Positions 4,618-16,487 of a DNA stretch of 64,000 nucleotides are shown piece by piece. Position numbers and translations under genes: made by a program. This DNA is from a virus (lineage: Duplodnaviria; Heunggongvirae; Uroviricota; Caudoviricetes), in the IMG/VR virus record IMGVR_UViG_3300033153_011579. One strand, 5' to 3'. Within the stretch, counting starts at the first letter, position 1, and every line of letters begins with the position of its first letter. The notes under the pieces were generated by a model. That model did not search any database and was not told where the DNA came from. It worked only from the letters and a program-made list of their open reading frames with translations.

Positions 4618-4651
4618 TAAGTGGATCGACGGCAAGTACAAGGAATCCGGC

Positions 4652-4744: not shown

Positions 4745-4845
4745 AAGAGACAATTGTCGAAATCATGTTTGGGTATCTGTATTTTGCGTTGGGTGGGGGT
4801 GCCGTCGCCTATGTGTGGTGGATGAGTAGCACTTTTGGAGGATGA
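4741..4845 (+). CDS. Small hydrophobic peptide (34 aa)
   Basis: MKETIVEIMFGYLYFALGGGAVAYVWWMSSTFGG*; ATGA overlap with upstream stop. Confidence 0.35.
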   Translation: MKETIVEIMFGYLYFALGGGAVAYVWWMSSTFGG

Positions 4846-4846
4846 G

Positions 4847-5050
4847 ATGGACAACCCCGACCTGTACTGCGTGAAGTGCTCGATCGGACTTGGCTTCGGT
4901 CCGCGCGCAACCATCGACAAGAAGGATTACTGCAACGGCTGCGCTGTCTACTTGCTACGCGCCCGCGTGGCCGAACTAGAATCTCAACCGGCGCAGACGA
5001 TGCCTGTCAAACGCACCGTGCGCGAGGCGGTGAACGATGATGTTGATTAG
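4847..5050 (+). CDS. Zinc-ribbon protein (67 aa)
   Basis: MDNPDLYCVKCS...DYCNGCAVYLLRARVAELE; GGAGGA 4 nt upstream; RARVAELE shared with 6829..7152. Confidence 0.55.
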   Translation: MDNPDLYCVKCSIGLGFGPRATIDKKDYCNGCAVYLLRARVAELESQPAQTMPVKRTVREAVNDDVD

Positions 5051-5339
5051 AGCAATCGGCAGCTCCCTGCTCGCAGTGGCGAGCATGACTATCCGTTGGA
5101 TTGCGGCCGACCTTCTAAGGAGTAAAGGAAAACACATGAGATCAACAACAATAGAAAAGATGTGTCAGGCAGCATCGGTACTCGACCGGGAGAAGTTTGA
5201 TGCTCTCGCCGAAGACCTTTTCGACGAACTGGCGGCTTCTACGACTCGGATGTCAGCAGCTATTCACAATTCGTACTGTCCGAAGTGCCTCGAAAAACAA
5301 CTCATAATCGACGACCTGCGGATCGTCGATCCTGACTGA
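5037..5339 (+). CDS. Hypothetical protein (100 aa; alternative start 5136)
   Basis: ORF track; hydrophobic N-terminus; internal ATG 5136 has AAGGAG/AAAGGAA upstream; AT-richer than neighbours. Confidence 0.4.
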   Translation: MMLIRAIGSSLLAVASMTIRWIAADLLRSKGKHMRSTTIEKMCQAASVLDREKFDALAEDLFDELAASTTRMSAAIHNSYCPKCLEKQLIIDDLRIVDPD

Positions 5340-5342
5340 TGA

Positions 5343-5357
5343 GGAATGACACGTTCC
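5343..5357 (+). repeat. T2 hairpin copy a (GGAA-TGACACG-TTCC)
   Basis: GGAATGACACGTTCC immediately after stop of 5037..5339 and 20 nt before T1 copy 8. Confidence 0.8.
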
Positions 5358-5376
5358 TTACGAAGAAAACGAATTT

Positions 5377-5412
5377 TGTAAGAGAACCCCAAGATTCTCT
5401 GACATGGAGGAG
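5377..5412 (+). repeat. T1 element copy 8 (TGACATG variant)
   Basis: TGTAAGAGAACCCCAAGATTCTCTGACATGGAGGAG. Confidence 0.85.
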
Positions 5413-5418
5413 ATAGTG

Positions 5419-5682
5419 ATGTTCGACGATTGGTCAACTTGGCAACTAGTACTGACCGGTGTCTTCTACTTTTTTCTGTGTATGCTGATCGGATTTCTTG
5501 CCACAGCCGTCCCAGCCTGGGTGCAGCTGTGGAGGGTCAAACAAGAATGTCGGAGTCGGGTAGCTCAAGCCAATCGAAGGTTTGATCTGTCTACTCGTGA
5601 TTTGTGTAAGAGAATGTCGGTTTCTCTGACACGGAGAAGAGAATGGGAACGGAAAAAGATCAAGACAACGTCAGGCACCTGA
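5419..5682 (+). CDS. Membrane protein (87 aa) reading through T1 copy 9
   Basis: MFDDWSTWQLVLTGVFYFFLCMLIGFLATAVPAWV...; TAA of copy 9 is out of frame so the ORF overlaps the next gene by 40 nt. Confidence 0.5.
   Translation: MFDDWSTWQLVLTGVFYFFLCMLIGFLATAVPAWVQLWRVKQECRSRVAQANRRFDLSTRDLCKRMSVSLTRRREWERKKIKTTSGT
5605..5639 (+). repeat. T1 element copy 9
   Basis: TGTAAGAGAATGTCGGTTTCTCTGACACGGAGAAG. Confidence 0.9.
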
Positions 5683-5945
5683 ACCAGGGTGAGCAGGCTT
5701 TTGCCGATCTGATCTCTGTCCTCTCCGACGGGAAGGTCTCCCGCGTCGTGGTGGCCTACTACTGCGAGGAGGACGAGGACGAGGAAGCTGGCTGGTCCTA
5801 CGTCCGGGCCTCGAGACCACCGAGCCCCATCGGTAGCGCCATCGTAGAGGATGTTGGAGCCGCGTCCTTGTTATCCTTGTACGTCAGAGACTGGTACGAC
5901 TCCGCCATGGCGACCGAGACAACCCACGAGGTGCCGCGGAAGTGA
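5643..5945 (+). CDS. Hypothetical acidic protein (100 aa)
   Basis: ATG 4 nt after T1 copy 9; MGTEKDQDNVRHLNQGEQAF...CEEDEDEEAGW. Confidence 0.55.
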   Translation: MGTEKDQDNVRHLNQGEQAFADLISVLSDGKVSRVVVAYYCEEDEDEEAGWSYVRASRPPSPIGSAIVEDVGAASLLSLYVRDWYDSAMATETTHEVPRK

Positions 5946-5952
5946 GGACAAG

Positions 5953-6282
5953 ATGGCTGTTGAGGAAACAACTGAAGAGCTGGCCCTGGAGGGACGCTCG
6001 GTGGTCATCGAGGTGACCCGCTTTCCCAAGGGCACATCCCGCGGCCGGGTGACATCGCTAGCCGTCGGCATCGAGCCCGACGTGAAGAATGGGGGCGACC
6101 CCGTCGATGTGTCTCCGGCCCTCGTGGTCGACGCGCTGATCTACGCCCTGAAGCTGAACTACGACGCCGAGAGCCAGCACGGGTCAAACGAGACGGCCGA
6201 GGACTACGTCGAGGACGTGGCGCGGATCCTGCTGTCGCAGATCGAGAACGACGAGCCGAGCTCGCTCATGCGGGTTCACTGA
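5953..6282 (+). CDS. Hypothetical protein, paralogue B of 2746..3075 (109 aa)
   Basis: MAVEETTEELALEGRSVVIEVTRFPKGTSRGRVTSLAVGI...; stop TGA lies in TGACACG. Confidence 0.75.
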   Translation: MAVEETTEELALEGRSVVIEVTRFPKGTSRGRVTSLAVGIEPDVKNGGDPVDVSPALVVDALIYALKLNYDAESQHGSNETAEDYVEDVARILLSQIENDEPSSLMRVH

Positions 6283-6292
6283 CACGGAGGGG
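6280..6292 (+). repeat. Stemless T1 3' half (TGACACGGAGGGG)
   Basis: TGA of TGACACG is the stop of 5953..6282; SD serves ATG 6296. Confidence 0.75.
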
Positions 6293-6295
6293 AAG

Positions 6296-6493
6296 ATGAG
6301 CCTGTTTTTTACGACGACAATTCGCGAGGATGTTGAGATCGAGGTCGATGTGGAGTGCTCGAGGTGTGGAGCCGCTCTCACGGCAACATCCAGAAGCGAA
6401 CACATCGGCTCCCACGATGAAAACCACCGGCTGGTGATCCACCCGTGCACCACCTGCTACCCGGTTGGCGCGACGGATACCGAGAGCTCGTAA
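6296..6493 (+). CDS. Zinc-ribbon protein (65 aa)
   Basis: ...VECSRCGAAL...HPCTTCYP; TAA inside T1 copy 10. Confidence 0.55.
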   Translation: MSLFFTTTIREDVEIEVDVECSRCGAALTATSRSEHIGSHDENHRLVIHPCTTCYPVGATDTESS

Positions 6494-6523
6494 GAGAATG
6501 TGCGTTTCTCTGACACGGAGGAG
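6491..6523 (+). repeat. T1 element copy 10
   Basis: TAAGAGAATGTGCGTTTCTCTGACACGGAGGAG; TAA = stop of upstream ORF. Confidence 0.9.
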
Positions 6524-6529
6524 TGGCAA

Positions 6530-6802
6530 ATGAATAAAGAGAAGAAACTCAAGAAGCTCGGGATCCCAGACAAGACCGTAACCTGGGAAGAGTTCAAGGA
6601 ACTCCCGCAAACGCGTGGTGAAGGGATCTCCTTTAAAGCGCAAGGTGTTGGGGACTGGAAGGGTGAGTGGTTCTGGTTTGAGTCGCTAGGGGTGGTTGAG
6701 GTCGACCGCGCCTTGGCCGATGGCGAGGTTATCAGAGGAATGAAGGTCAACGCTGGGAACTGGCACAGGCTTGTTGTCGTTCCTCATAATTTTCCTCGCT
6801 GA
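6530..6802 (+). CDS. Hypothetical protein (90 aa)
   Basis: MNKEKKLKKLGIPDKTVTWEEF...; ATG 6 nt after SD (track ORF start 6500 lies in the hairpin loop). Confidence 0.6.
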   Translation: MNKEKKLKKLGIPDKTVTWEEFKELPQTRGEGISFKAQGVGDWKGEWFWFESLGVVEVDRALADGEVIRGMKVNAGNWHRLVVVPHNFPR

Positions 6803-6807
6803 CGACC

Positions 6808-6843
6808 TGTAAGAGAATGGAGCGTTCTATGACAGAGAAAGAG
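6808..6843 (+). repeat. T1 element copy 11 (degenerate 3' half)
   Basis: TGTAAGAGAATGGAGCGTTCTATGACAGAGAAAGAG. Confidence 0.7.
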
Positions 6844-7152
6844 ATCAAGCCGAAGATGGTGGATGGCGAGGCGGTGTGTTCTAAAAACTGTCCGCGTTAT
6901 GGGATTGAGCCATGCATGGGGCTTGTTGATTTATCCTCATGCGCCCCCTACTACCGCGCCCGTGTCGCCGAGCTCGAGGCACAGATTTCAAGAATCAGCG
7001 ATACGATCTACCGGGGTGCTCCGCTGTCGTGGGCAAAGGCTGAATTTCACGAGGTCGTGAGCGCCTGGGAGCTGGATCTCTGTATCGCTCTGAACTTATG
7101 CGGCTTCCGCGACGCCCTTGAGCATATTAAGGCGAAGAAAGATTCAGAGTAA
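6829..7152 (+). CDS. Hypothetical protein (about 107 aa; start uncertain 6817/6829/6856)
   Basis: ...CSKNCPRYG...APYYRARVAELEAQISR; TAA inside T1 copy 12. Confidence 0.5.
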   Translation: MTEKEIKPKMVDGEAVCSKNCPRYGIEPCMGLVDLSSCAPYYRARVAELEAQISRISDTIYRGAPLSWAKAEFHEVVSAWELDLCIALNLCGFRDALEHIKAKKDSE

Positions 7153-7180
7153 GAGAATTTTACGTTCTCTGACACGGAGA
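7150..7180 (+). repeat. T1 element copy 12
   Basis: TAAGAGAATTTTACGTTCTCTGACACGGAGA; TAA = stop of upstream ORF. Confidence 0.9.
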
Positions 7181-7185
7181 AAAAG

Positions 7186-7674
7186 ATGAAGACACAAAAA
7201 GAGATTGCAGACCGAGTGAGCAAGTTAGGCAAATCAGACTTCTTCGGGTTCAGGGCAGAGGTACTGATCGGCTACTTGGGTATGGAACTGCTGGTGCCGT
7301 TCTTGAAGGAGGGTGCCCGCAAGCGGTTTGAAGAAGACAAGGAGAATCCCTGGACTGACCCGGTTTTCACAGAAGATGAGGTCAAGAAGGACATGCTCGA
7401 CTATCTCAAATTCGCTTTTGAGAAGTGTTTAGACCACCGTGGTATCTCCGCGAACCGGAGCATCGAGAAACTCGTTGAGTGGGCGTGGATTCTGGGGAGG
7501 GACGACCTGGTGGAGTTCGCAGGAGAGGCAGGCAACTTCCGAAATTACGGTGCGCCGGTTCTAAAGAAATTCGCTGAGGGGTTCGAGATAGAGCTGCCCG
7601 AGGACGAGCGGTTTCACCGAATGGCTCGTGGAGAGCGCTGCGGAGCGGACTACGCTTGCGGTTGTAACGAGTGA
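7186..7674 (+). CDS. Hypothetical protein (162 aa)
   Basis: ORF track; ATG after T1 copy 12 SD. Confidence 0.7.
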   Translation: MKTQKEIADRVSKLGKSDFFGFRAEVLIGYLGMELLVPFLKEGARKRFEEDKENPWTDPVFTEDEVKKDMLDYLKFAFEKCLDHRGISANRSIEKLVEWAWILGRDDLVEFAGEAGNFRNYGAPVLKKFAEGFEIELPEDERFHRMARGERCGADYACGCNE

Positions 7675-7677
7675 GCT

Positions 7678-7712
7678 TGTAAGAGAATTTTGCATTCTCT
7701 GACACGGAGAAG
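7678..7712 (+). repeat. T1 element copy 13
   Basis: TGTAAGAGAATTTTGCATTCTCTGACACGGAGAAG; preceded by shared TGAGCT. Confidence 0.9.
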
Positions 7713-8054
7713 ATGATGAATCAGGATAGAGTAATCGAAATAGTGAGGGGCTGGCGGTGTCCTCACTGCTTCATGGAGTACGAGAACATTAAGGAAGCCC
7801 AGGAGTGCGATCAGCAGTGCTCCGCCTTCCTCGACGATGCTCCCCCAACTTGTGACTGGTGTGATCAGCCGGGAGAACACGAGAGTCCAGTCGAGGGGCT
7901 ACACTTTCTCATCAACTGTGGGCACTACATGTACGGTATGCATGAGGACGATAGTGGGGACGCTGAGAACGACCGCTACGAGACCGTCCAGCGGTTACGC
8001 GGTGTCGAGGCCCTTCCATGGGAGTACCCAGACGTCGGAGTGAAAGATGAATAA
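7713..8054 (+). CDS. Cys-rich (zinc-binding-like) protein (113 aa)
   Basis: WRCPHCFMEY...ECDQQC...CDWCDQPGEH. Confidence 0.6.
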   Translation: MMNQDRVIEIVRGWRCPHCFMEYENIKEAQECDQQCSAFLDDAPPTCDWCDQPGEHESPVEGLHFLINCGHYMYGMHEDDSGDAENDRYETVQRLRGVEALPWEYPDVGVKDE

Positions 8055-8376
8055 GCCAGAAGAAGACTTTGGTCTCGTGGTCGAACTTCACGGCCCGCGC
8101 GTGATTCATCGGTGCCGAGACTGTGATCACAGGTTCGGGTCTCCGCCCAGGCATTGGCAATGTAAGGCGCACCCGCGTCACCTGGAAAACCCAGAATATG
8201 CTCTTCATTTGGTCGGAAGAGAGTTGGATGAAAGCGAGCTCACAGACGGATATGGGTTTTGTGACCTCATCCGTGTGGCGACACAGCCGACGTGTCCTGA
8301 GTTCGAGCCGCGTAGACCGGCGAGTGCTGGATTTGTGTCTTGGTGGAGAAGGCTGTTGGCGAAGTTCGGTCTGTAA
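8047..8376 (+). CDS. Cys-rich protein (109 aa)
   Basis: HRCRDCDHRFG...; 8-nt overlap with upstream gene, GGAG upstream; TAA in T1 copy 14. Confidence 0.55.
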   Translation: MNKPEEDFGLVVELHGPRVIHRCRDCDHRFGSPPRHWQCKAHPRHLENPEYALHLVGRELDESELTDGYGFCDLIRVATQPTCPEFEPRRPASAGFVSWWRRLLAKFGL

Positions 8377-8400
8377 GAGAATTTATGATTCTCTGACACG
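8372..8400 (+). repeat. T1 element copy 14 (no canonical GGAGG after TGACACG)
   Basis: TGTAAGAGAATTTATGATTCTCTGACACG then AGATGGGTAGATG. Confidence 0.85.
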
Positions 8401-8410
8401 AGATGGGTAG

Positions 8411-8650
8411 ATGAAGAAGCGAGCAAAACGAGTCGAAAGATTCCATGTGAGGTGTCCCTTTTGTGGCGATCTCGTGGACATCATGACGTCGCTCTCTTGG
8501 TGCTCTGGGTGTTTTGTCGAGTGGTACCGTACACGAGCTTGCAATTACATTTTTGATACCGAGAGGAAGACCGAGAGGTTCGTGTGGGCCAAGGCGGTGC
8601 AGAAGTCCGGAGGCATGCGGATCGCCTCAGCCAACGAGGACGATGAGTAA
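8411..8650 (+). CDS. Zinc-ribbon protein (79 aa)
   Basis: VRCPFCGDLVDIMTSLSWCSGCFVEWY; TAA in T1 copy 15. Confidence 0.6.
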   Translation: MKKRAKRVERFHVRCPFCGDLVDIMTSLSWCSGCFVEWYRTRACNYIFDTERKTERFVWAKAVQKSGGMRIASANEDDE

Positions 8651-8679
8651 GAGAATTCAGGATTCTCTGACACGGAGGA
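8648..8679 (+). repeat. T1 element copy 15
   Basis: TAAGAGAATTCAGGATTCTCTGACACGGAGGA; perfect 7-bp stem, 5-nt loop. Confidence 0.95.
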
Positions 8680-8683
8680 TGAG

Positions 8684-9052
8684 ATGTGGAACAGAGTAAT
8701 ATTCGCGGGCTGGATGGTAGTCGCGTTGCTGATCGGGGTCCTATTCGGCGCAGGCCTCTACCAAACCTGGCCGGCTAATCCCGACGTGATCGAGGACACC
8801 GAACCCTCAAGCGGTCGGCCCCTAGAGATCGAGATCTGCTCAGACGCGGCTGACCACTGCAACGATTCGGAGGACTGCGTAGAGGACGTATTCTCGCGGT
8901 GTCTTTACCACCTCGGGACGCCAACAATGTCCGACTGTCACGAAGAGTGCGCAGGGATCATGAAGGAGCTAAGCGACAAGAACGATGCGTGCTGGGATAG
9001 CTTCATGAACTGCCAAGACGTACTCGACGAGGTGTGGCGAGAAGCGCTGTAA
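8684..9052 (+). CDS. N-terminally anchored Cys-rich protein (122 aa), paralogue of 32459..32836
   Basis: TM VIFAGWMVVALLIGVLFGAGLY; TMSDCHEECAGIMKELSDKNDACWDSFMNC aligns with TIETCREECAEIVRDLSRANDDLWERWLAC. Confidence 0.65.
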   Translation: MWNRVIFAGWMVVALLIGVLFGAGLYQTWPANPDVIEDTEPSSGRPLEIEICSDAADHCNDSEDCVEDVFSRCLYHLGTPTMSDCHEECAGIMKELSDKNDACWDSFMNCQDVLDEVWREAL

Positions 9053-9086
9053 GAGAATTGAGAATTCTCTGACACGGAAAAGAGGA
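9048..9086 (+). repeat. T1 element copy 16
   Basis: TGTAAGAGAATTGAGAATTCTCTGACACGGAAAAGAGGA. Confidence 0.9.
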
Positions 9087-9091
9087 ACTCA

Positions 9092-9349
9092 GTGACTGAC
9101 GACATCATCCAGATTCGAACCGCGCCAGGATGCCGCAAGGAAAAGCCGATGCGGTATCTGGTGTTCCGCATCGAGTGCTACTACCCAGCGGGTGGGTGGG
9201 ACGACCTCGAAGCGACGACCAACGACAAGGAAACCGCAATCGAACTGGCCAAGAAAATTGAGGCTGAATTCAGCAGCGGCGAGGTGATTGACCTCGATAC
9301 TGGGACTCGCCTTTACCCGCCGTGGCGCGGTGACGACGAGGACGAGTAA
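9092..9349 (+). CDS. Hypothetical protein (85 aa, GTG start)
   Basis: GTG 5 nt after AAGAGGA; ends ...PWRGDDEDE*; TAA in T1 copy 17. Confidence 0.55.
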   Translation: MTDDIIQIRTAPGCRKEKPMRYLVFRIECYYPAGGWDDLEATTNDKETAIELAKKIEAEFSSGEVIDLDTGTRLYPPWRGDDEDE

Positions 9350-9380
9350 GAGAATTGGCGATTCTCTGACACGGAGAGGA
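9347..9380 (+). repeat. T1 element copy 17
   Basis: TAAGAGAATTGGCGATTCTCTGACACGGAGAGGA; upstream CGGTGACGACGAGGACGAG matches copy 6 flank. Confidence 0.95.
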
Positions 9381-9382
9381 AG

Positions 9383-9634
9383 ATGACCAGGCTCGAACAG
9401 TACCAAAAACTCCACGAGATCTTCCTCGTGAACAGGTTTTCGGACGTGTTGACCGAGGCTGAAGAAGACGACCTGCTCTACGCCCTGGACGCCGTTTGGT
9501 GGCAGATGACGAGTGCGGAGCACGCCGAAGCGGAGAAGGACACCTGGATGTGGAATCGGGTGCTGCGGGGATGGTTCGCGCACATCGATCCCGCTGGCGG
9601 AACGAACAACCCAGTGATGAAGTGGAGCTTGTAA
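9383..9634 (+). CDS. Hypothetical protein (83 aa)
   Basis: ORF track; TAA in T1 copy 18. Confidence 0.6.
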   Translation: MTRLEQYQKLHEIFLVNRFSDVLTEAEEDDLLYALDAVWWQMTSAEHAEAEKDTWMWNRVLRGWFAHIDPAGGTNNPVMKWSL

Positions 9635-9666
9635 GAGAACTGACAATTCCCTTACACGAGGAGGAG
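9630..9666 (+). repeat. T1 element copy 18 (divergent right arm, TTACACG)
   Basis: TGTAAGAGAACTGACAATTCCCTTACACGAGGAGGAG. Confidence 0.8.
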
Positions 9667-9669
9667 AGG

Positions 9670-9945
9670 ATGAGGCGGAATCGCAGAACAATGGTGGCCA
9701 CAAGCACGATAGGTTCGTGGATGAGCCGAGTGTATAGACTGGAAGCTGAGAACGAAAAGCTTCGTACTGATCTTCTCTTCGCCAAAGCAAAGATTAAGGC
9801 GATCCGGGTACGTATTGAGATGGTCGATGATGGGGAGAGCTGTTACCAGTCACACGACGCGGTACCAGACATTCTCAACATTCTGCGTGGGGGGACGCTT
9901 TGGACAGGAAGTCCACAGTACGCCGCCGTCAAAAAACGCCTGTAA
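9670..9945 (+). CDS. Hypothetical coiled-coil protein (91 aa)
   Basis: MRRNRRTMVATSTIGSWMSRVYRLEAENEKLRTDLLFAKAKIK...; TAA in T1 copy 19. Confidence 0.55.
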   Translation: MRRNRRTMVATSTIGSWMSRVYRLEAENEKLRTDLLFAKAKIKAIRVRIEMVDDGESCYQSHDAVPDILNILRGGTLWTGSPQYAAVKKRL

Positions 9946-9975
9946 GAGAACCGACTGACTCTATTACACGAGGAG
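9941..9975 (+). repeat. T1 element copy 19 (divergent)
   Basis: TGTAAGAGAACCGACTGACTCTATTACACGAGGAG. Confidence 0.75.
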
Positions 9976-9982
9976 ATAATAG

Positions 9983-10465
9983 ATGCACGGGCTAGGAAGA
10001 AGAGGAAACCGCCGGAAGAAACGCCTGAAGAAACATCGAGGCCGTACTCCTGCTAGAGTTTCGGCATCCAGCAAGGTCTACAACACTACCTCCAGGACCG
10101 TCGTCAAGACTGCTGCGCCCAGCACCGTCGTCACGTTCGACGACGTAGCTGATCTGGCCGAGGCGACCCTCGACGAGGAGAACGTGACCGCGCTGTTCAT
10201 GCGGTACGACAATAACATCAGGCCAACGCTCTTCTACACTGCCTACGCGGAAACTCCGTCTGGGCGCGTCTTCCTCCAGGCAGTCCATGTACTGTCGAAA
10301 GATGAGATCTACGAGAACCCAAAACACCCGCTGCCCTGTTACAGGGACGGCAAGGACATGAGGTGCCCCTATCCGCAGGAGCACATCATCGACAGGGCCG
10401 TTGAGTACTGGGAGTCCCGAGGGATTGACGTCTACGAGGGCACGGTGGAGATGAAGATTTTGTAA
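9983..10465 (+). CDS. Hypothetical protein with basic N-terminus (160 aa)
   Basis: MHGLGRRGNRRKKRLKKHRGRTPARV...; TAA in T1 copy 20. Confidence 0.6.
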   Translation: MHGLGRRGNRRKKRLKKHRGRTPARVSASSKVYNTTSRTVVKTAAPSTVVTFDDVADLAEATLDEENVTALFMRYDNNIRPTLFYTAYAETPSGRVFLQAVHVLSKDEIYENPKHPLPCYRDGKDMRCPYPQEHIIDRAVEYWESRGIDVYEGTVEMKIL

Positions 10466-10494
10466 GAGAACCTTCTATTCCCTGACATGGAGGA
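10461..10494 (+). repeat. T1 element copy 20
   Basis: TGTAAGAGAACCTTCTATTCCCTGACATGGAGGA. Confidence 0.8.
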
Positions 10495-10499
10495 TTGAG

Positions 10500-10733
10500 A
10501 TGAAAACGGGAGAACGCGAACTGTTCAAGGTAACCGGACGACCTGGTCGCCGTATCTGGCGCAAACAAGCCGGAGCGCGAGGGTACCGACCCATCTGGAC
10601 CTCCGACTACGTTGAGGAGGTTGACGGGAAGTTCTTCTGCACGATTCGGAGTGAGTCCGAGAACGACCTGCCGATGGAGCAGCACGATAACCTTCAAGAC
10701 GCGCTCGAGTGGTTGATGAGGGATCGGACGTAA
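10500..10733 (+). CDS. Hypothetical protein (77 aa)
   Basis: ORF track; TAA in T1 copy 21. Confidence 0.6.
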   Translation: MKTGERELFKVTGRPGRRIWRKQAGARGYRPIWTSDYVEEVDGKFFCTIRSESENDLPMEQHDNLQDALEWLMRDRT

Positions 10734-10762
10734 GAGAATCAACGATTCTCTGACATGGAGGA
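10731..10762 (+). repeat. T1 element copy 21
   Basis: TAAGAGAATCAACGATTCTCTGACATGGAGGA. Confidence 0.9.
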
Positions 10763-10766
10763 CAGG

Positions 10767-10961
10767 ATGAAACGCACGCTGTTGACCGAGATCGACTTTG
10801 ACCGTCAGAGCTGTCGGGTCATCGAGGCGGAGATCATCAAGTGCAACACCTGTAAGGGTAGCGGTTGGAAAGAGGTTTCGACGCACCGCGGAAACTACAG
10901 ACGCCGCTGTGCTCAGTGCCACGGCACAGGCAAGGTGCTGGTGGGACCGAAGGTTCGATGA
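10767..10961 (+). CDS. DnaJ-type zinc-finger-like protein (64 aa)
   Basis: Two CxxCxGxG motifs: CNTCKGSG and CAQCHGTG. Confidence 0.6.
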   Translation: MKRTLLTEIDFDRQSCRVIEAEIIKCNTCKGSGWKEVSTHRGNYRRRCAQCHGTGKVLVGPKVR

Positions 10962-10962
10962 C

Positions 10963-10996
10963 TGTAAGAGAACAGACGATTCTCTGACACGAGGAG
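10963..10996 (+). repeat. T1 element copy 22
   Basis: TGTAAGAGAACAGACGATTCTCTGACACGAGGAG. Confidence 0.9.
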
Positions 10997-11002
10997 AGAA
11001 GG

Positions 11003-11254
11003 ATGAATTTCAGTAACGAGCAAATGACAGAGTGGCTGTCGGAGGTTCCGGAAGCTACCAGCGTACGCTGCGTGGCTATCCCTCCGTACATCAGTAAAGA
11101 GATGAAGGAGCGGCCAGTGATTCCGTGGGATCTGCTTACCCGAGAAGTCAACAACAAGATAGGTGATGGTGACCGCGTACTCGGGATTCGTGCTGCGGGG
11201 GCCAACTCCTACGGCAATTACTGGATCATCATTTGGGTTGGCAACAAAGAGTGA
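11003..11254 (+). CDS. Hypothetical protein (83 aa)
   Basis: ORF track; ATG after T1 copy 22 SD. Confidence 0.6.
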   Translation: MNFSNEQMTEWLSEVPEATSVRCVAIPPYISKEMKERPVIPWDLLTREVNNKIGDGDRVLGIRAAGANSYGNYWIIIWVGNKE

Positions 11255-11257
11255 GCT

Positions 11258-11290
11258 TGTAAGAGAAACTAATATTCTCTGACGGAGGAG
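11258..11290 (+). repeat. T1 element copy 23
   Basis: TGTAAGAGAAACTAATATTCTCTGACGGAGGAG; preceded by shared TGAGCT. Confidence 0.85.
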
Positions 11291-11293
11291 AGC

Positions 11294-11527
11294 ATGGACA
11301 ACGATACCAAAAGACTGTGTGGCAACTGCTTCTGGTTTGATCAAGAGCTCTGTCGACGACTGCCACCGCGCATGATTGACCAGGTAGATCTTTATGAAAA
11401 AGATAGTGAGTTCAACACCTGGAATGCCAGTTACGCAGACGACTACACCTCTTGGCCAGTTGTAGAAGAGAAAGCCTGGTGCGGAGAATGGCGATCGAAG
11501 GAAGACGGCTGGCCCGTCGGTAAGTAA
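11294..11527 (+). CDS. Cys-rich hypothetical protein (77 aa)
   Basis: CGNCFWFDQELCRRLPP...WCGEW; TAA in T1 copy 24. Confidence 0.6.
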   Translation: MDNDTKRLCGNCFWFDQELCRRLPPRMIDQVDLYEKDSEFNTWNASYADDYTSWPVVEEKAWCGEWRSKEDGWPVGK

Positions 11528-11556
11528 GAGAATCAAACATTCTCTGACACGAGGAG
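11525..11556 (+). repeat. T1 element copy 24
   Basis: TAAGAGAATCAAACATTCTCTGACACGAGGAG. Confidence 0.9.
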
Positions 11557-11559
11557 AAG

Positions 11560-11673
11560 ATGATGGAAATTCTAATTTTTTGGCTGTGCTTTTGTGGACT
11601 CGGAGCCGTTGGTATATTGGTAGCGTCCTTGGTGATCCTCAGTGAGGAACGTCAACGAAACGGTCGCCAGTAA
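11560..11673 (+). CDS. Small hydrophobic peptide (37 aa; below ORF-track cutoff)
   Basis: MMEILIFWLCFCGLGAVGILVASLVILSEERQRNGRQ*; exactly bounded by T1 copies 24 and 25. Confidence 0.4.
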   Translation: MMEILIFWLCFCGLGAVGILVASLVILSEERQRNGRQ

Positions 11674-11701
11674 GAGAATCAGCACGTTCCCTGAAAGGAA
11701 G
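11671..11701 (+). repeat. T1/T2 hybrid element (copy 25)
   Basis: TAAGAGAATCAGCACGTTCCCTGAAAGGAAG: T1 left half joined to the ACGTTCCCTGAAAGGA tail seen in T2 copy e. Confidence 0.8.
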
Positions 11702-11714
11702 ATTGGAGAACAAA

Positions 11715-11927
11715 ATGTCGAAGAACACGGTCACGCAGCACGTTTTGGTTGATTCCCATGTTGAGTGCTTCCCTGAGGAATTCCTCGAAGCACTTCTCGC
11801 AGTTTGTCCGGCTCCCTTGGCACCGGACAGTCTTAAACAACTCCGTGACATAGGGAGAGTCCAGTTGAGCCTCTGGCTTTCCCCGGAGGACTTGAAGCGC
11901 TGGACAGGTAAAGCGCCAGGGGAATGA
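11715..11927 (+). CDS. Hypothetical protein (70 aa)
   Basis: MSKNTVTQHVLVDSHVECFPEEF...; stop TGA lies in T2 copy b. Confidence 0.5.
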   Translation: MSKNTVTQHVLVDSHVECFPEEFLEALLAVCPAPLAPDSLKQLRDIGRVQLSLWLSPEDLKRWTGKAPGE

Positions 11928-11938
11928 CACTTTCCCTG
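11919..11938 (+). repeat. T2 hairpin copy b
   Basis: GGGGAATGACACTTTCCCTG; TGA = stop of upstream ORF. Confidence 0.8.
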
Positions 11939-11976
11939 TGCCTACACAACAACCGCCTAGTGGGGCAAGGAGTAGG

Positions 11977-12330
11977 ATGATGACAGAGCATACATTGACC
12001 GTTGGTGGAAGCGAGGTCGTGGTTTCGAGTAACCCTGTTTCAAGGGACCTTGTCGGCTCGGACCGCAGCTTCGGAGATGAACGCGCGCACCCATGTCCGA
12101 ACTGTAGCAAAAATAGTCTGCGCTACCATTTCCTCGACTACAGGCCTGCGCTGTCGTGGGCCTGCGTCGAGTGTGGCTATGCTGAGCACCCGCCGATTGA
12201 AAAGTTGGTTGCCGATGGGTACTCCCCGCAGAAGGTAGAGGAGGATTGGTCGACCTGCATTTACCCAAAGGAGTGGATGCTTTACTCCCCGCTTGAGCGG
12301 TTAGCGTCACCACAAACACGAAAGGATTAG
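11977..12330 (+). CDS. Zinc-ribbon protein (117 aa; track start 11938 is GTG)
   Basis: HPCPNCSKNS...WACVECGYAEHP; AAGGAG 6 nt before ATGATG. Confidence 0.5.
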   Translation: MMTEHTLTVGGSEVVVSSNPVSRDLVGSDRSFGDERAHPCPNCSKNSLRYHFLDYRPALSWACVECGYAEHPPIEKLVADGYSPQKVEEDWSTCIYPKEWMLYSPLERLASPQTRKD

Positions 12331-12334
12331 AACG

Positions 12335-12685
12335 ATGGGTTTGTTTTCACCACCAGGCCAAGCTCCAGATCTCCGAGAGGCGAAAGATGTTAGAGTTATC
12401 GTCACCCTATGCAAGGACGAAGAACCAGGTGATGGATATGTCCGAACACAGATAACCGCTCTCGATGAACTCGAGGAGGGTGAAGAGGGTTTAAATATTA
12501 ACGGAGACAACGTCTTTGAGGCACTGGTTTACGCGCTGTACCACCACTTTGTAAACGAGCACGAGGTTGGGCATTCTTGTTGCCTTACTCATTTTATCGA
12601 AGAGATCACAGACCTACTGGAGCGTGTCAACGAGACTGACGGAAACGAAAAGGTCAGTCGGAGTTCTGAAGAACACACACATTAA
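12335..12685 (+). CDS. Hypothetical protein (116 aa), AT-richer
   Basis: ORF track; visibly lower GC than array average. Confidence 0.55.
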   Translation: MGLFSPPGQAPDLREAKDVRVIVTLCKDEEPGDGYVRTQITALDELEEGEEGLNINGDNVFEALVYALYHHFVNEHEVGHSCCLTHFIEEITDLLERVNETDGNEKVSRSSEEHTH

Positions 12686-12727
12686 TAAGGGTTATTGCAT
12701 CAGCTGCGGACCGTCGACCCTGTATGA

Positions 12728-12746
12728 GGAATGACACGTTCCCTGG
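12728..12746 (+). repeat. T2 hairpin copy c (in non-coding gap)
   Basis: GGAATGACACGTTCCCTGG. Confidence 0.8.
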
Positions 12747-12793
12747 TGGGAGAACGTCGAACTGGAGTGAGAGGAGTTTGAATGTTTAAAGCA

Positions 12794-12944
12794 CGTCGAG
12801 TTCTCCGAGCGCGCGGTGAGTGTGGACGGGGGCCTGCGTTGGGTTTTTGTGACGAATTCTCCTTAGCAGGCCTTCTACGTGGAGTGCTTCAACCATTCCA
12901 TCGACCTACTCGACCCACTCACCGCGCGCTCGGAGAACTCGACG
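12794..12944. repeat. 29-bp perfect inverted repeat flanking a 93-nt spacer
   Basis: 12794-12822 CGTCGAGTTCTCCGAGCGCGCGGTGAGTG is the exact reverse complement of 12916-12944; nested GGCCTGC/GCAGGCC pair in the spacer. Confidence 0.9.
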
Positions 12945-12971
12945 GCACGCAGTCGGGGGAAGGAGAAAAGA

Positions 12972-13181
12972 ATGCGAAAATATCGATTTCAGCACGATGA
13001 GGATGGTGACGTGCTGTGGGTCTACATCGCCGGTAACTCCGCGTACCCAGGGGAGCACCGCTTCGATCCACCAGAAGTTTTGGAGGCCTACATCGGTTAC
13101 CTTCGAGCATGTAAAGGTGATCAACTTGATTCTGATGTAGTTATCGCCTGGAAGGACAGTGCTTGGGGTCCGGATGTCTGA
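12972..13181 (+). CDS. Hypothetical protein (69 aa)
   Basis: MRKYRFQHDEDGDVLWVYIAG...; GGAAGGAGAAAAGA upstream; stop abuts T2 copy d. Confidence 0.5.
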   Translation: MRKYRFQHDEDGDVLWVYIAGNSAYPGEHRFDPPEVLEAYIGYLRACKGDQLDSDVVIAWKDSAWGPDV

Positions 13182-13196
13182 TGACACGTTCCCTGG
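13179..13196 (+). repeat. T2 copy d (left arm missing)
   Basis: TGATGACACGTTCCCTGG. Confidence 0.65.
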
Positions 13197-13232
13197 TACC
13201 CCTATGCCCAAACACTAGGCAGGAGGAATGAG

Positions 13233-13412
13233 ATGTCTGAAAAGAAAGCTGTGGTTCAACGTGTTGTCATCCACGAACTCTTGGATGCAGGTGTGGTGGC
13301 GATCGAAGGACGTGATCTTGTGTTCGAGTCCCCCTGGGACAAGGGCTCAGAGGCGATGATTGCTTTGATGAAGAAAGGCCTCGTCAAAGACGTGGTCCGG
13401 GACAGGGAATGA
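13233..13412 (+). CDS. Hypothetical protein (59 aa; below ORF-track cutoff)
   Basis: MSEKKAVVQRVVIHELLDAGVVAIEGRDLVFESPWDKGSEAMIALMKKGLVKDVVRDRE*; AGGAGGAATGAG upstream; TGA in T2 copy e. Confidence 0.45.
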   Translation: MSEKKAVVQRVVIHELLDAGVVAIEGRDLVFESPWDKGSEAMIALMKKGLVKDVVRDRE

Positions 13413-13423
13413 CACGTCCCCTG
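13405..13423 (+). repeat. T2 hairpin copy e
   Basis: GGGAATGACACGTCCCCTG followed by AAAGGAG SD and ATG 13438. Confidence 0.8.
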
Positions 13424-13437
13424 AAAGGAGAAGCCCG

Positions 13438-13713
13438 ATGGGTCAAACAACATCCGACAATCCAGGTGGAGTGAAGTCGCTCTTCGAAGATAACAACTCA
13501 CAAAAAGCTACTGCCTCCACGCTCGCCGGATACCTCGTCGAAGATGGTGCTTGGATGGTATTGCCAGATGGGGACCGCGAGATCACTATTGTGCGGCACA
13601 GAGACTATGGCACGATCATGTATCTCATTGATGGTCCAGGCGAGGATATAAGAAGCGGCGTAGTAAAAACGGTGCGAGAACTCGCTGACGCCATCGCCGT
13701 TGGTGGGGAATGA
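13438..13713 (+). CDS. Hypothetical protein (91 aa)
   Basis: ORF track; stop TGA in T2 copy f. Confidence 0.55.
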   Translation: MGQTTSDNPGGVKSLFEDNNSQKATASTLAGYLVEDGAWMVLPDGDREITIVRHRDYGTIMYLIDGPGEDIRSGVVKTVRELADAIAVGGE

Positions 13714-13726
13714 CACGTTCCCTAGG
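13705..13726 (+). repeat. T2 hairpin copy f
   Basis: GGGGAATGACACGTTCCCTAGG, 10 nt before T1 copy 26. Confidence 0.85.
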
Positions 13727-13736
13727 AACTTGAGCT

Positions 13737-13770
13737 TGTAAGAGAATCTCGCATTCTCTGACACGGAGGA
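13737..13770 (+). repeat. T1 element copy 26
   Basis: TGTAAGAGAATCTCGCATTCTCTGACACGGAGGA; preceded by shared TGAGCT. Confidence 0.95.
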
Positions 13771-13774
13771 AAAA

Positions 13775-13954
13775 ATGGACGAACACATGAGATATTTAGG
13801 CTGCCTGAAACTACTTGAGGATTGCTCACCTTACGTACCGGAAGAGATTCGTGAGGGTATCGAGATGGCTCACGACGATGCTGTAGAGGCCAGCAACGGG
13901 ACCTTGCGGGCTCGCAGTGTGCTCGATCGACGAGAGATCGAGGTGGTGACGTAA
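13775..13954 (+). CDS. Hypothetical protein (59 aa; below ORF-track cutoff)
   Basis: MDEHMRYLGCLKLLEDCSPYVPEEIREGIEMAHDDAVEASNGTLRARSVLDRREIEVVT*; bounded by T1 copies 26 and 27. Confidence 0.5.
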   Translation: MDEHMRYLGCLKLLEDCSPYVPEEIREGIEMAHDDAVEASNGTLRARSVLDRREIEVVT

Positions 13955-13984
13955 GAGAATCCGCACGTTCTCTTACACGGAGGA
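13952..13984 (+). repeat. T1 element copy 27
   Basis: TAAGAGAATCCGCACGTTCTCTTACACGGAGGA. Confidence 0.85.
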
Positions 13985-13985
13985 A

Positions 13986-14189
13986 ATGATGGGTAAAGAT
14001 GTGAGGACCAAGACATTCGCTATGATGTTTCGGGAGCGCTGCGTGATCATGCGGGATGCTTTCGACCGCCGTGACGTAGAGGGCTTTGCTACTGCTCTCA
14101 AGGACGTTGAGCGCCTGATGCGAGAGCACGCCGAGGGGTGCGGCTGCTCACAATGCCGAGAGACGCTGAAGATCATGAATGAGGTGTAA
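13986..14189 (+). CDS. Hypothetical protein (67 aa)
   Basis: ORF track; ...HAEGCGCSQCRETLK; TAA in T1 copy 28. Confidence 0.55.
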   Translation: MMGKDVRTKTFAMMFRERCVIMRDAFDRRDVEGFATALKDVERLMREHAEGCGCSQCRETLKIMNEV

Positions 14190-14219
14190 GAGAATACACA
14201 CGTCCTTTAACACGGAGGA
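14185..14219 (+). repeat. T1 element copy 28 (degenerate right arm)
   Basis: TGTAAGAGAATACACACGTCCTTTAACACGGAGGA. Confidence 0.75.
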
Positions 14220-14223
14220 AACG

Positions 14224-14460
14224 ATGAGTACTGTTCTGGATAATGACCAAAAATTGATGGTAATTCTGGCGGTTGTGGTGGCACTCTTCCTGTTAATTTT
14301 GGCTGGTGGGAAGCTTATTGGTGATGTTTTGTCACCCCCAACACCCCAAGAGGACTGTATGAACCAGGCCCAGCAGCTGGACAGCGAGGAGTCTGAGAAA
14401 GAAGCCTACTACAAGTGTCTTGAGTCTTTAGGGCTGGAAGATCCTAAAAAGGCTTTGTAA
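14224..14460 (+). CDS. N-terminally anchored small protein (78 aa)
   Basis: MSTVLDNDQKLMVILAVVVALFLLILAGGKLIG...; TAA in T1 copy 29. Confidence 0.55.
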   Translation: MSTVLDNDQKLMVILAVVVALFLLILAGGKLIGDVLSPPTPQEDCMNQAQQLDSEESEKEAYYKCLESLGLEDPKKAL

Positions 14461-14490
14461 GAGAATCTTCCGTTCTCTGACACGGAGAAG
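14456..14490 (+). repeat. T1 element copy 29 (last)
   Basis: TGTAAGAGAATCTTCCGTTCTCTGACACGGAGAAG. Confidence 0.9.
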
Positions 14491-14492
14491 AA

Positions 14493-15164
14493 GTGAAGCT
14501 GAGAAAACCACCAATCCTCTGCTCGATCTGCGGAGACCCAATCGTCACGAAGTGGCGAGACAAGCGAAGGCAGACCTGCGGGTCTCCCGAGTGCCGGGTG
14601 GCGATCCTGCTCGAGCCGCACCTGGGCGACCGGACTCGACCGTACGCCGGCGGAGCTCGCGGGAAGTGGAAAAAAAGCACCAAGCGCGGGTCGGTGGTGC
14701 GCGACCTCGCGAAGTGGGGTATTGGGCTTTCCGAGGAGATCTCCACGAACCTCGCCGACGCGGCCGACCAGGTCTTTAAGAGAACCAAAACCGCGAAGGC
14801 GGTCGGGACGAAGAAGGACGAGCGCGGTGCGGACCACCCGGAGGCCCAGGCTCAGATCTGGGGCTTCCTCGCTCGTAGGAGCGCGCTCATAAAAGTCGTC
14901 AGCAAGGACGACGGCGAGCCCGGGTTGCTCATTCTCAAAACCAAAAGCGAGAGTGTCCCGCACGCCATCCGCCGTCTCCTGAGCATCACCCCGGTCTCCG
15001 AGAACCTGTGCGATGTCTTCATGGCGTGGAGCTGTCCTTGCCCTCAGGACTCTCGAGTGATTTACGAAACGATCGACGACCTGCCCAAGACGGTAGGCTA
15101 TCACGACCCGTGCCCGCGTTGCGGTGCGGCACCACTGGAGGTGAAAAATGTTCCTAAAAAATAG
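14493..15164 (+). CDS. Hypothetical protein with terminal zinc-ribbon motifs (223 aa, GTG start)
   Basis: LCSICGDP...TCGSPECR at N-terminus; CPCPQ...HDPCPRCG at C-terminus. Confidence 0.6.
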   Translation: MKLRKPPILCSICGDPIVTKWRDKRRQTCGSPECRVAILLEPHLGDRTRPYAGGARGKWKKSTKRGSVVRDLAKWGIGLSEEISTNLADAADQVFKRTKTAKAVGTKKDERGADHPEAQAQIWGFLARRSALIKVVSKDDGEPGLLILKTKSESVPHAIRRLLSITPVSENLCDVFMAWSCPCPQDSRVIYETIDDLPKTVGYHDPCPRCGAAPLEVKNVPKK

Positions 15165-15528
15165 CGTGTTCCTTCCCGGGCGAGGCTGGCTACTCGTGAA
15201 GCCACCGGAGTCGGAAGCCGACACAGGAGAGGTCTACACTGTCGACGTGATCGAGCTCGCCGCCGAGGAGAAGTCCGCGTGCCCGCAGTTCCAGGAGGAG
15301 ACAGCGATACGCGGTGCTGGCGGCGCTCCGATGATGACCGTGGACATCGTGCTCCCGAAGCGCTGCTACGTCGGTGACCGGTGGAGCGTACTAAAGGACA
15401 GAGACGCAGTGCGCGAGGTACCCGACCTGGACGGTGCCCTGCTCAAGACCGAGGAGGTGATCGGCTGGGAGTGGGAGGACGACCGTCTCAAGCCGCCTCC
15501 TGGCGTCGTAGAGGACCTGGACTCCTGA
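15148..15528 (+). CDS. Hypothetical protein (126 aa)
   Basis: GGAGGTG upstream of ATG; 17-nt overlap with upstream gene. Confidence 0.55.
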   Translation: MFLKNSVFLPGRGWLLVKPPESEADTGEVYTVDVIELAAEEKSACPQFQEETAIRGAGGAPMMTVDIVLPKRCYVGDRWSVLKDRDAVREVPDLDGALLKTEEVIGWEWEDDRLKPPPGVVEDLDS

Positions 15529-16487
15529 TGCCGACCAGAGCACACATCCAGGCGTTGGCCAACGCGAGAGAGGCTCTCGAGCCGTTCAGCCGGTGGCTCG
15601 TCCGCGGGTGCGGGAAGACCGATGGAGAGGCCGACTTCATCATCAGCTTCGTGTGTCGCGCGCTGTGGACTTCCACCGCCGACGACGACGAGGATCCCGA
15701 CCCGCTCGATTGCCTCTCCGAGCCGATGATCACCCGGCCGACATTCAACAAGCTGAAATCGGCCATCCGGCAGTATTACACCTGGCACCTCGTCCGGCAG
15801 TCGTCGCCACCGAGTGAGAAAGAGCGGGCGAGGCGGCAGCTCAGGCGGCTCGAATCCATCTTGCCGTACGGCGGCGTCGGGAGACGAGCCAAACGGGTCG
15901 CGATCGATGCGCTGTCGCAGGCGGATTTAAAAAAGCTCATGGACGGACTGAAAAAATGGCACGCGGAACAAGGACGGCGATGGCCCTGGAGCTACCCGGT
16001 GATCAGCATGTGCCTGAAGATCTCGCCGGCGATCAGAAACTGTCTGGTCTACCTCTCTCGTGAGGAGCTCGTCCTCGCTCTCGCCGACGGGGTGAACAGC
16101 GGGTCGTTCAACCTGTGGGTCCGCCAGAAGAACGTGCCGGTCATGAGGTCGATCCCCATCGGGCTCGTCTGGAAAGAGGCGGACATGCTCGTCGGCTGGC
16201 CCTGGCAATGGGAGACGCTCCAGGACATTATCTCGTCGTCCAACGCGAGCACCCAGAACTCGGTGAACAAGATCAAAGAGATCTCTTTCAAGTACTATCG
16301 CCACGTCCTGGGAGACATCGGCGACCCGAAGACGTTCTTAGCTCGACTTCGGTATGCCACCTGGGTCTGGCTCTTGAAAAAGACGAAAGGCGACTGGCTC
16401 TCCGTCGCGCAGATCGTCGGGAAGTCGGTAAAGATCCTCAGAAGACGGCCGGAGCTGCTCGAGGTCGTGTCGAGGAGGCTGAACTAG
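15528..16487 (+). CDS. Recombinase-like protein with degenerate catalytic motifs (319 aa)
   Basis: TGATG coupling; ARLRYATWVWLLKKTKGDWLSVAQIVGKSVKIL resembles the HxLRH...GH box II but lacks His/His/Tyr. Confidence 0.4.
   Translation: MPTRAHIQALANAREALEPFSRWLVRGCGKTDGEADFIISFVCRALWTSTADDDEDPDPLDCLSEPMITRPTFNKLKSAIRQYYTWHLVRQSSPPSEKERARRQLRRLESILPYGGVGRRAKRVAIDALSQADLKKLMDGLKKWHAEQGRRWPWSYPVISMCLKISPAIRNCLVYLSREELVLALADGVNSGSFNLWVRQKNVPVMRSIPIGLVWKEADMLVGWPWQWETLQDIISSSNASTQNSVNKIKEISFKYYRHVLGDIGDPKTFLARLRYATWVWLLKKTKGDWLSVAQIVGKSVKILRRRPELLEVVSRRLN

Follow-up and report, generated by a model that had tools for sequence, protein, structure and literature searches.

Why does an inverted repeat of 29 bp without a single mismatch lie between two early genes of a phage, and what would it do there? 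The question is raised by a 64-kb window (64,000 nucleotides, the whole stretch of DNA that was analysed), which looks like an uncultivated phage. The window encodes GP88-like, DUF5131, and PurZ/PurA-like adenylosuccinate synthetase (phrog_1211) proteins as well as lipase, transglycosylase, and Laminin_G_3 proteins. No DNA match to the window was obtained in INPHARED in either near or distant mode, and a tRNA search of the window returned none.

Setting of the inverted repeat in the early-gene array

Positions 1-16487 of the window hold approximately 45 small genes, all of which are located on the + strand. The span of this array has also been given as 14 kb with about 45 small + strand genes. 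Most junctions in the array carry a cassette of approximately 33 nt (T1, TAA-GAGAAT-N5-ATTCTC-TGACAC-GGAGG-N3-6-ATG), which between 11.7 and 13.8 kb is replaced by a second motif (T2, ATGACACGTTCCCTGGT) with exact copies at 12731 and 13181. Nearly all junctions elsewhere in the array measure 13-85 nt, and a junction of 286 nt (12686-12971) occurs only at the inverted repeat. The extent of this gap and the ATG at 12972 that follows it, both given in the earlier note, were confirmed, and the ATG is preceded by a perfect ribosome-binding site (AAGGAG-N6-ATG). The gap had furthermore been described as the only large non-coding one of the array, which is essentially right: small ORFs directly after a T1 cassette fill the apparent gaps at 2022-2204, 5340-5642, 8055-8482, 11528-11714, and 14190-14492, which leaves 12686-12971 as the only junction that is clearly non-coding. 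The gap at 4582-4846, however, is ambiguous, as it holds tiny ORFs of 28-34 aa.

The genes on both sides of the junction are ORFans (Table 1). The product of the 12972 gene has no homologue, with or without a hypothetical N-terminal extension, a 319-aa protein encoded 2.5 kb downstream matches only itself, and neither the T1 junction motif nor the flanking proteins are present in IMG/VR. Beyond two identical assemblies, no contigs spanning the site of the element were found. An empty site in a relative was likewise not seen, the flanking genes being without any homologue in the collections searched.

The two arms of the inverted repeat had been reported as exact reverse complements of each other, and they are indeed complementary at 29 of 29 positions. 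Together with the 93 nt between them, they form an element of 151 bp. When up to three mismatches were allowed, the arm matched only its own two sites in the 64-kb window, and the 29-nt arm occurred in none of 100 dinucleotide-preserving shuffles. Among the inverted repeats in the window that are at least 16 nt long and at most 400 nt apart, this pair is the only one with 100% complementarity, the five others being 73-95% complementary. The 29-bp repeat is far beyond chance expectation. An independently assembled contig (Ga0366832_1008060, 18.8 kb, from the JGI metagenome 3300033148) is identical over positions 12600-13300, which excludes that the repeat arose through an error in a single assembly.

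The composition of the element sets it apart, with a GC content of 60% (69% in the arms) as compared with 51% in the flanks. A nested pair in the 93-nt core, GGCCTGC (12831-12837) and GCAGGCC (12866-12872), had been pointed out before and is present; in the + strand RNA, two G.U pairs lengthen it to 10 bp. The local recurrence of CGTCGA near the element is not significant, as this hexamer is about fivefold over-represented throughout the window. A T1-like half-site on the - strand of the core (TAAGGAGAATTC) is too short to be trusted.

Table 1. Features of the junction that carries the inverted repeat, in window coordinates
Feature	Position	Strand	Remarks
Upstream early gene, 116 aa	12335..12685	+	ORFan; matches only itself among 5.8 billion protein clusters
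T2 junction motif upstream of the element	12731..12747	+	ATGACACGTTCCCTGGT; identical copy at 13181-13197
AGGAG-N5-ATG start module	12772..12784	+	Opens a 72-codon non-coding-like ORF that enters the stem 12 nt later
GCA, left copy of the 3-bp direct repeat	12791..12793		Abuts the element; candidate target-site duplication
Left arm of the inverted repeat	12794..12822	+	CGTCGAGTTCTCCGAGCGCGCGGTGAGTG; terminal inverted repeat, 5' strand of the predicted RNA stem
Core, 93 nt	12823..12915	+	Hairpins A and B and a 3-bp hairpin in the predicted + strand RNA fold
Hairpin A of the core	12828-12837 / 12866-12875	+	10 bp, 2 G.U (predicted)
Hairpin B of the core	12879-12886 / 12894-12901	+	8 bp, 2 G.U (predicted)
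3-bp hairpin of the core	12902-12904 / 12910-12912	+	RNA fold (predicted)
Right arm of the inverted repeat	12916..12944	+	Exact reverse complement of the left arm; 3' strand of the predicted RNA stem
GCA, right copy of the 3-bp direct repeat	12945..12947		Abuts the element; read from the sequence
AAGGAG-N6-ATG, RBS and start of the 12972 gene	12960..12974	+	16 nt 3' of the stem, predicted single-stranded
Downstream early gene, 69 aa	12972..13181	+	ORFan; codon score 0.26, like the array median; no homologue

Junction anatomy, coding capacity, and predicted folding

Read along the + strand, the junction consists of T2, a 24-nt spacer, AGGAG-N5-ATG, the triplets TTT AAA GCA, the left arm, the core, the right arm, a second GCA, and finally CGCAGTCGGGGG-AAGGAG-N6-ATG (12972). 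When the ends of the element were inspected for a target-site duplication, as the earlier note had advised, the 3-bp GCA was found to abut both of them. A GCA/GCA match at this exact position has a chance probability of 1/64, which is why the direct repeat is weak evidence of insertion. The spacing between T2 and the next start is alike at this and the following junction, with 51 nt to ATG 12782 as compared with 52 nt from the T2 at 13181 to ATG 13233. Moreover, removal of 12794-12947 (the element and one GCA) joins ATG 12782 in frame to the 12972 gene, an in-frame and stop-free outcome that has a chance probability of about 0.2. The spacing and the in-frame rejoining suggest, without being compelling, that the element was inserted at the very beginning of a gene or directly before it. 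It is not required to see ATG 12782 as the orphaned start of the 12972 gene because that gene has a perfect SD of its own. A longer upstream version of the 12972 gene was rejected, as the frame holds TGA and TAG stops and offers no start further upstream. The same applies to read-through of the TAG into this gene, since TAG is an ordinary stop here that ends 34 predicted genes.

The only ORF across the element (12782-13000) had been dismissed as implausible in content. A codon model was trained on the genes of the array, under which this ORF receives -0.217 bits per codon and thereby falls below all array genes (0.064 to 0.543, median 0.278; 0.26 for the 12972 gene) and into the range of the off-frames (-0.839 to -0.119). 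Its 72-aa translation has no homologue among 1.84 billion representative proteins. From the codon score and the lack of a protein match, it follows that the element is non-coding.

The fold of positions 12780-12960 that the earlier note had called for was computed for both strands and for DNA. The + strand RNA folds at -103.8 kcal/mol (z = -10.2) with the arms paired, the - strand RNA at -92.7 kcal/mol (z = -8.8), and the ssDNA at -57.2 kcal/mol (z = -8.7). For the 93-nt core alone, the values are -32.6 kcal/mol (z = -2.29; 5/200 shuffles folded as well) for the + strand RNA versus -23.2 kcal/mol (z = -0.17) for the - strand RNA. This strand asymmetry of the core is modest evidence that the sense RNA rather than the DNA would be the structured species. 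In a 325-nt context, the probability of being unpaired is predicted to be 0.0 for the arms and 0.21 for AUG 12782; at the start of the 12972 gene, it amounts to 0.66 (SD) and 0.59 (AUG).

A consensus scan of both strands of the element as sequenced revealed neither a promoter-like nor an intrinsic terminator-like site. In Rfam, no match reached the gathering threshold anywhere in the window, which rules out a known RNA family; the best sub-threshold match (mir-2576, 29.2 bits versus 83) is a generic match to a long hairpin. The earlier proposal of an RNase III site or a structured RNA is thus upheld in silico with respect to the 29-bp helix, the fully paired arms, and the sense-structured core, but no Rfam family can be attached to it. 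The predicted 29-bp perfect helix has the geometry of an RNase III substrate, i.e., a dsRNA helix of at least about two turns.

Origin and role of the element

A MITE-like insertion had been among the roles proposed for the repeat, and further copies of the 151-bp unit were therefore looked for in the window, the phage flanks, IMG/VR, GTDB, JGI, PLSDB, and INPHARED. None was found. The scans of the large collections relied on exact 20-22-mers or on gapped exact two-arm patterns. In the window, blastn-short gave no second copy; the best other match (22/25 at 28855-28879, E = 0.11) falls inside a coding sequence and was rejected as a solo arm. Approximately 15 kb more of the same phage, provided by contigs that add 5.4 kb upstream and 10 kb downstream, contain no copy either, and IMG/VR yielded none with the exact 22-mer, the 20-mer, or the gapped two-arm patterns. 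The species genomes of GTDB gave one match, in which only one arm is present, within a coding sequence from Myxococcota. Among the JGI metagenome contigs, 30 matches were obtained, all of them single arms inside conserved bacterial coding sequences (e.g., ClpB-like), in which the arm 20-mer encodes LTARSE(N/K). With blastn against PLSDB and INPHARED, only matches at chance level were seen (E of at least 0.04), and the Nonomuraea match with E = 0.04 lies in a coding sequence and has no partner arm.

Genes for transposition were not found either. In approximately 79 kb of the phage, searches for a transposase, a reverse transcriptase, and a serine invertase came back empty; the transposase search took in about 126 predicted proteins of the window and the flanking contigs. 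PLSDB contains no IS-like match, and a parent IS with matching ends was not found. A retron msr-msd was considered and rejected, as inverted repeats are present but a reverse transcriptase domain is encoded neither in the window nor in the flanking contigs. A CRISPR mini-array and a protelomerase site were set aside as well, the repeats being inverted rather than direct and the spacer long. The proposal of a MITE-like insertion thus fits in terms of length (151 bp), 29-bp terminal repeats, GCA repeat, GC jump, and lack of coding content, but no further copies were found in the collections searched, whereas a MITE is defined by multiple copies.

The explanation that we prefer, tentatively and with somewhat less than even confidence, is that of a young MITE-like foldback insertion that acts as a long mRNA hairpin and as a generic RNase III substrate. 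Arms without mismatches, a direct repeat at both ends, a composition unlike that of the flanks, and a junction that departs from the array's pattern would together be explained most economically by a recent insertion. In particular, perfect arms would favour a recent origin at the DNA level over slow selection at the RNA level. The departure of this junction from the regular junction pattern of the array speaks for an insertion, whereas a GC-rich composition where MITEs are typically AT-rich, the lack of a transposase, and the lack of a second copy speak against it. The element would have entered the early-gene array at a point that follows closely on a T2-SD-ATG start module. As all array genes lie on the + strand, it should be transcribed in an early polycistronic RNA, in which the arms are predicted to pair as a 29-bp perfect helix closing a two-hairpin domain of 93 nt. 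For bacterial RNase III, a helix of about two turns suffices for cleavage and its sequence matters little, and the host enzyme would probably cut this helix. Cleavage would separate the 12335-12685 and 12972-13181 cistrons in the transcript, free a stem-loop RNA of roughly 100-120 nt, and uncouple the stability of the upstream message from that of the downstream message. Since the helix begins 12 nt after AUG 12782, it should block productive translation from that start, and the AAGGAG-AUG of the 12972 gene, 16 nt past the helix, is expected to stay accessible.

The hairpin may also have been born locally, by inverted duplication or a template switch, without ever belonging to a mobile family. 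It would then set a boundary in the early transcript, for RNase III or for stability, or yield, upon excision, a structured RNA of approximately 110 nt. We consider this unlikely, albeit the most probable of the rivals. It agrees with an element that is single-copy in all collections searched and located within a tightly organised polycistronic array, with a downstream RBS left open in the predicted fold, and with a core whose structure is specific to the sense strand and relies on four G.U pairs (z = -2.29 vs -0.17). However, 29 of 29 Watson-Crick pairs are not expected unless such a structure is very young, because selection at the RNA level tolerates G.U pairs and mismatches, and the GC jump and the flanking GCA suit an insertion better. 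Furthermore, no Rfam family matches, and the flanking genes have no relatives in the collections searched, hence no conservation was seen. A role that was absent from the list in the earlier note is that of a DNA inversion switch, which could be a live but minor rival. Here, the 29-bp arms would be crossover sites at which a site-specific recombinase inverts the 93 bp between them, within the leader of the 12972 gene, altering the leader RNA and hence the expression of the downstream early gene. We rate such a switch as improbable. A segment of 93 bp is close to the lower size limit for recombinase synapsis, the arms lack the clear internal dyad typical of recombinase core sites upon inspection of the sequence, and both assemblies show the same orientation. 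The element as sequenced contains no promoter- or terminator-like site (the flipped form was inspected by eye only), and the 29-bp RNA stem forms whichever way the core points. On the other hand, a conserved junction motif and a gene start do enclose a short segment with perfect inverted repeats at its ends, and the core folds well in the present orientation only. A tyrosine-recombinase-like protein is encoded by the ORF at 82-969, which matches Pfam Phage_integrase weakly (E = 3.6e-4, 20.8 bits vs a cut-off of 27.1) and XerA (5hxy) at E = 0.06 and contains the HxxR, H, and Y motifs. Its match is, however, under the Pfam gathering score, and the protein is encoded 12 kb away and may simply be an integrase. 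That the phage's own tyrosine recombinase flips the core is a more specific and slightly more improbable version; as a structured leader RNA is predicted for the present orientation only, phage subpopulations would then differ in the expression of the downstream early genes. Switches that are located in leaders and act after transcription initiation have precedent (PMC5386303), and candidate viral invertons have been reported (PMC13501310).

A function of the repeat as a DNA-level site, whether as cruciform, paired protein-binding site, origin, partition signal, or packaging signal, appears very improbable. The arms are perfect at the DNA level and the stability of the ssDNA fold given above is in line with such a site. 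With 93 bp at its centre, however, the repeat is kinetically very unlikely to extrude from duplex DNA as a cruciform, so that the cruciform-forming site suggested earlier is disfavoured by established knowledge. In addition, the surroundings contain neither iterons nor an AT-rich tract, nor genes for replication or packaging, and the extra structure of the core is of the RNA type (G.U pairs) and strand-specific. Hardly credible, finally, is that ORF 12782-13000 is a real gene of 72 aa or that ribosomes skip the 151 nt by hopping from one GCA to the other. There is a good SD-ATG at 12772-12784, whose distance from T2 matches that at the next gene, and matched GCA codons flank the element with the frame restored across it. 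Against coding stand the codon score outside that of all array genes, the lack of a homologue among the 1.84 billion representatives, a basic product unlike that of most neighbours, and a mostly paired AUG 12782 with the stem starting at +13. In the case of bypass, the codon after take-off is CGU instead of a stop, the nascent peptide would comprise only 4 residues, and the downstream gene has its own SD-ATG. As compared with the bypass in T4 gene 60, the gap here is three times as long, and matched GCA/GCA codons are present without a take-off stop.

The feature is real and clean, yet explicable by known mechanisms. If the preferred reading of a foldback insertion in the mRNA is true, a MITE-like foldback element has been caught inside a phage early operon. 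This would be a modest addition, namely that such elements also shape phage transcripts. If the element is instead an inversion switch, or if a structured RNA is cut out of its transcript, a phage lineage without cultured relatives would have a new regulatory device of compact size. With its 29-bp perfect helix and accessible downstream RBS, the element offers a clean and testable substrate.

Comparison with known systems

Hairpins that are processed by RNase III are known from phage transcripts, including T7 R0.3-R1.3 and the N leader and sib sites of lambda, and intervening sequences of 23S rRNA are excised by RNase III. Like the T7 and lambda sites, the element is predicted to form an intercistronic hairpin in a polycistronic early RNA. 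Those sites, however, are shorter, imperfect helices with internal loops that are conserved among relatives, whereas the helix described here is perfect, measures 29 bp, closes a branched domain of 93 nt, and is a putative cleavage site. The likeness to the 23S rRNA intervening sequences lies in an insert of approximately 100-150 nt that is closed by a long stem and would be removable by RNase III.

In terms of layout, the Cdi4 and cwpV switches are similar as well, as they consist of a short segment between inverted repeats of approximately 20-30 bp in a 5' leader. The flagellar switch Cdi4 of C. difficile comprises 154 bp with 21-bp repeats in the 5' UTR, and its recombinase RecV is encoded elsewhere (PMC5386303). 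A tyrosine recombinase encoded elsewhere in the genome is a further point of likeness with both switches, although this assignment is weak for the phage of the element. The 154 bp of Cdi4 contrast with a core of 93 bp, and the element has been seen in one orientation and has perfect, GC-rich repeats.

Prokaryotic MITEs are shorter than 500 bp, have terminal inverted repeats of 4-30 bp and direct repeats, give rise to a stable stem-loop transcript, and are typically AT-rich (PMC10969869). The element resembles them in its size, terminal repeats, flanking direct repeat (a candidate target-site duplication), lack of coding capacity, and predicted stem-loop. It differs from them in that neither further copies nor a parent IS sharing its ends was found and in that it is GC-rich in a GC-moderate region. 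The element is best filed among the foldback or MITE-like hairpin elements embedded in mRNAs, where it is an orphan.

The closest points of comparison are found in the Correia elements (CREE, also called nemis), which are 153-157 bp long, have 26-bp repeats, and generate a target duplication (PMC2649163; PMC10969869). They are frequently inserted between promoter and gene and are thus co-transcribed. Transcribed copies are bound or cleaved by RNase III, and some copies are located in a prophage region (PMC2649163; PMC10969869). At 151 bp with 29-bp repeats, the element is of nearly the same dimensions, and it is likewise non-coding and flanked by a short (candidate) duplication. In sequence, there is no similarity, the arms being GC-rich and unrelated to the Correia repeat. 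Correia elements occur in at least 100 copies per genome and are known only from Neisseria, whereas the element is single-copy in all collections searched and located in an uncultivated phage. They duplicate TA (sometimes CA) and are AT-rich with an IHF site, as compared with the flanking GCA and the 60% GC of the element. Should the reading as a foldback insertion in the mRNA be right, the processing of the early mRNA is expected to be rewired in the way that Correia elements do in Neisseria. By analogy, the element would work like a Correia element while standing outside that family.

Palindromes and arm-like sequence elsewhere in the window

The window contains other palindromes besides the 151-bp foldback element (12794-12944). 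Palindromes of the form GGCC(C)ACTAGTGG(G)CC are repeated at 61005-61025 and 61399-61419 as well as at 48045-48072, and the pair near 61 kb, which lies 373 nt apart in opposite orientations, carries T or A runs and thus resembles terminator sites. A 41-nt imperfect palindrome (44925-45008; 73% complementary, 2-nt centre) is located at the junction of the genes 44219-44929 and 45009-45911. The inner part of the element's repeat arm is matched at 22 of 25 positions by 28855-28879, which lies within a 118-aa coding sequence and encodes ...VELAQRAV... there; this match (E = 0.11) was judged to be due to chance.

Phage proteins with possible roles in recombination, regulation, and metabolism

At the head of the early gene array, 82-969 (+) encodes a 295-aa tyrosine-recombinase-like protein with the motifs HxxR...H...Y, a sub-threshold match to Pfam Phage_integrase, and a weak match to XerA. 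It may be an integrase, which would make the phage temperate, or an invertase. On contig L034, which extends the same phage, a sigma-70 family factor is encoded at 3433-4107, roughly 2 kb upstream of the first position of the window; it comprises regions 2 and 4 only and is ECF-like. The presence of such a factor implies phage-specific promoters that are invisible to a scan for the sigma-70 consensus. Another phage protein (17597-18598, -) contains a response-regulator receiver domain (E = 3.5e-15).

The adenylosuccinate-synthetase homologue encoded at 26259-27368 (-) matches phrog_1211, '2-aminooxy adenylosuccinate synthetase' (PurZ-like), and is 33-35% identical to proteins of Rhizobium and Mycobacterium phages. 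Because this PurZ-like homologue is encoded, the phage DNA might contain 2-aminoadenine. Downstream of the window, contig L037 of the same phage (8172-11409) holds two sulfotransferase-domain genes and, about 1 kb further on, a methyltransferase-domain gene.

Junction motifs of the early array

At 11.7-13.8 kb, the T1 cassette described below gives way to, or is joined by, the T2 motif, ATGACACGTTCCCTGGT. In three of the degenerate copies (11924, 13409, 13710) the upstream gene ends at the TGA of T2, and in the copy at 12731 it ends an overlapping 55-codon ORF. The two exact copies form 17-bp direct repeats, 450 bp apart, that enclose both the element and the gene directly downstream of it (12972-13181).

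Positions of junction motifs and associated small ORFs in the window
Feature	Positions	Strand	Setting
T1, examples	8651-8683, 9350-9382, 10734-10766	+	array junctions
T2, exact copies	12731-12747, 13181-13197		
T2, degenerate copies	11924, 13409, 13710		
T2, further position	about 5345		
Small hydrophobic ORFs	11560-11673, 4741-4845, 14224-14460		3' of T1 cassettes

T1 is a cassette of about 33 nt found at nearly every junction of the array (1140-14490, + strand), with the layout TAA-GAGAAT-N5-ATTCTC-TGACAC-GGAGG-N3-6-ATG, in which stop codon and SD are joined into one unit with a 6-bp palindrome or hairpin and the conserved TGACAC between them. A strict regular expression gave 16 matches, all on the + strand, and further copies are visible by eye in the intergenic listing. 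After T1 cassettes lie very small hydrophobic ORFs (34-78 aa) resembling single transmembrane helices; only the last of the three tabulated was predicted by the JGI gene caller. A search of IMG/VR for T1 returned no copy. In mycobacteriophages, similar motifs are the start-associated sequences of Cluster K and the stoperators of Cluster A.
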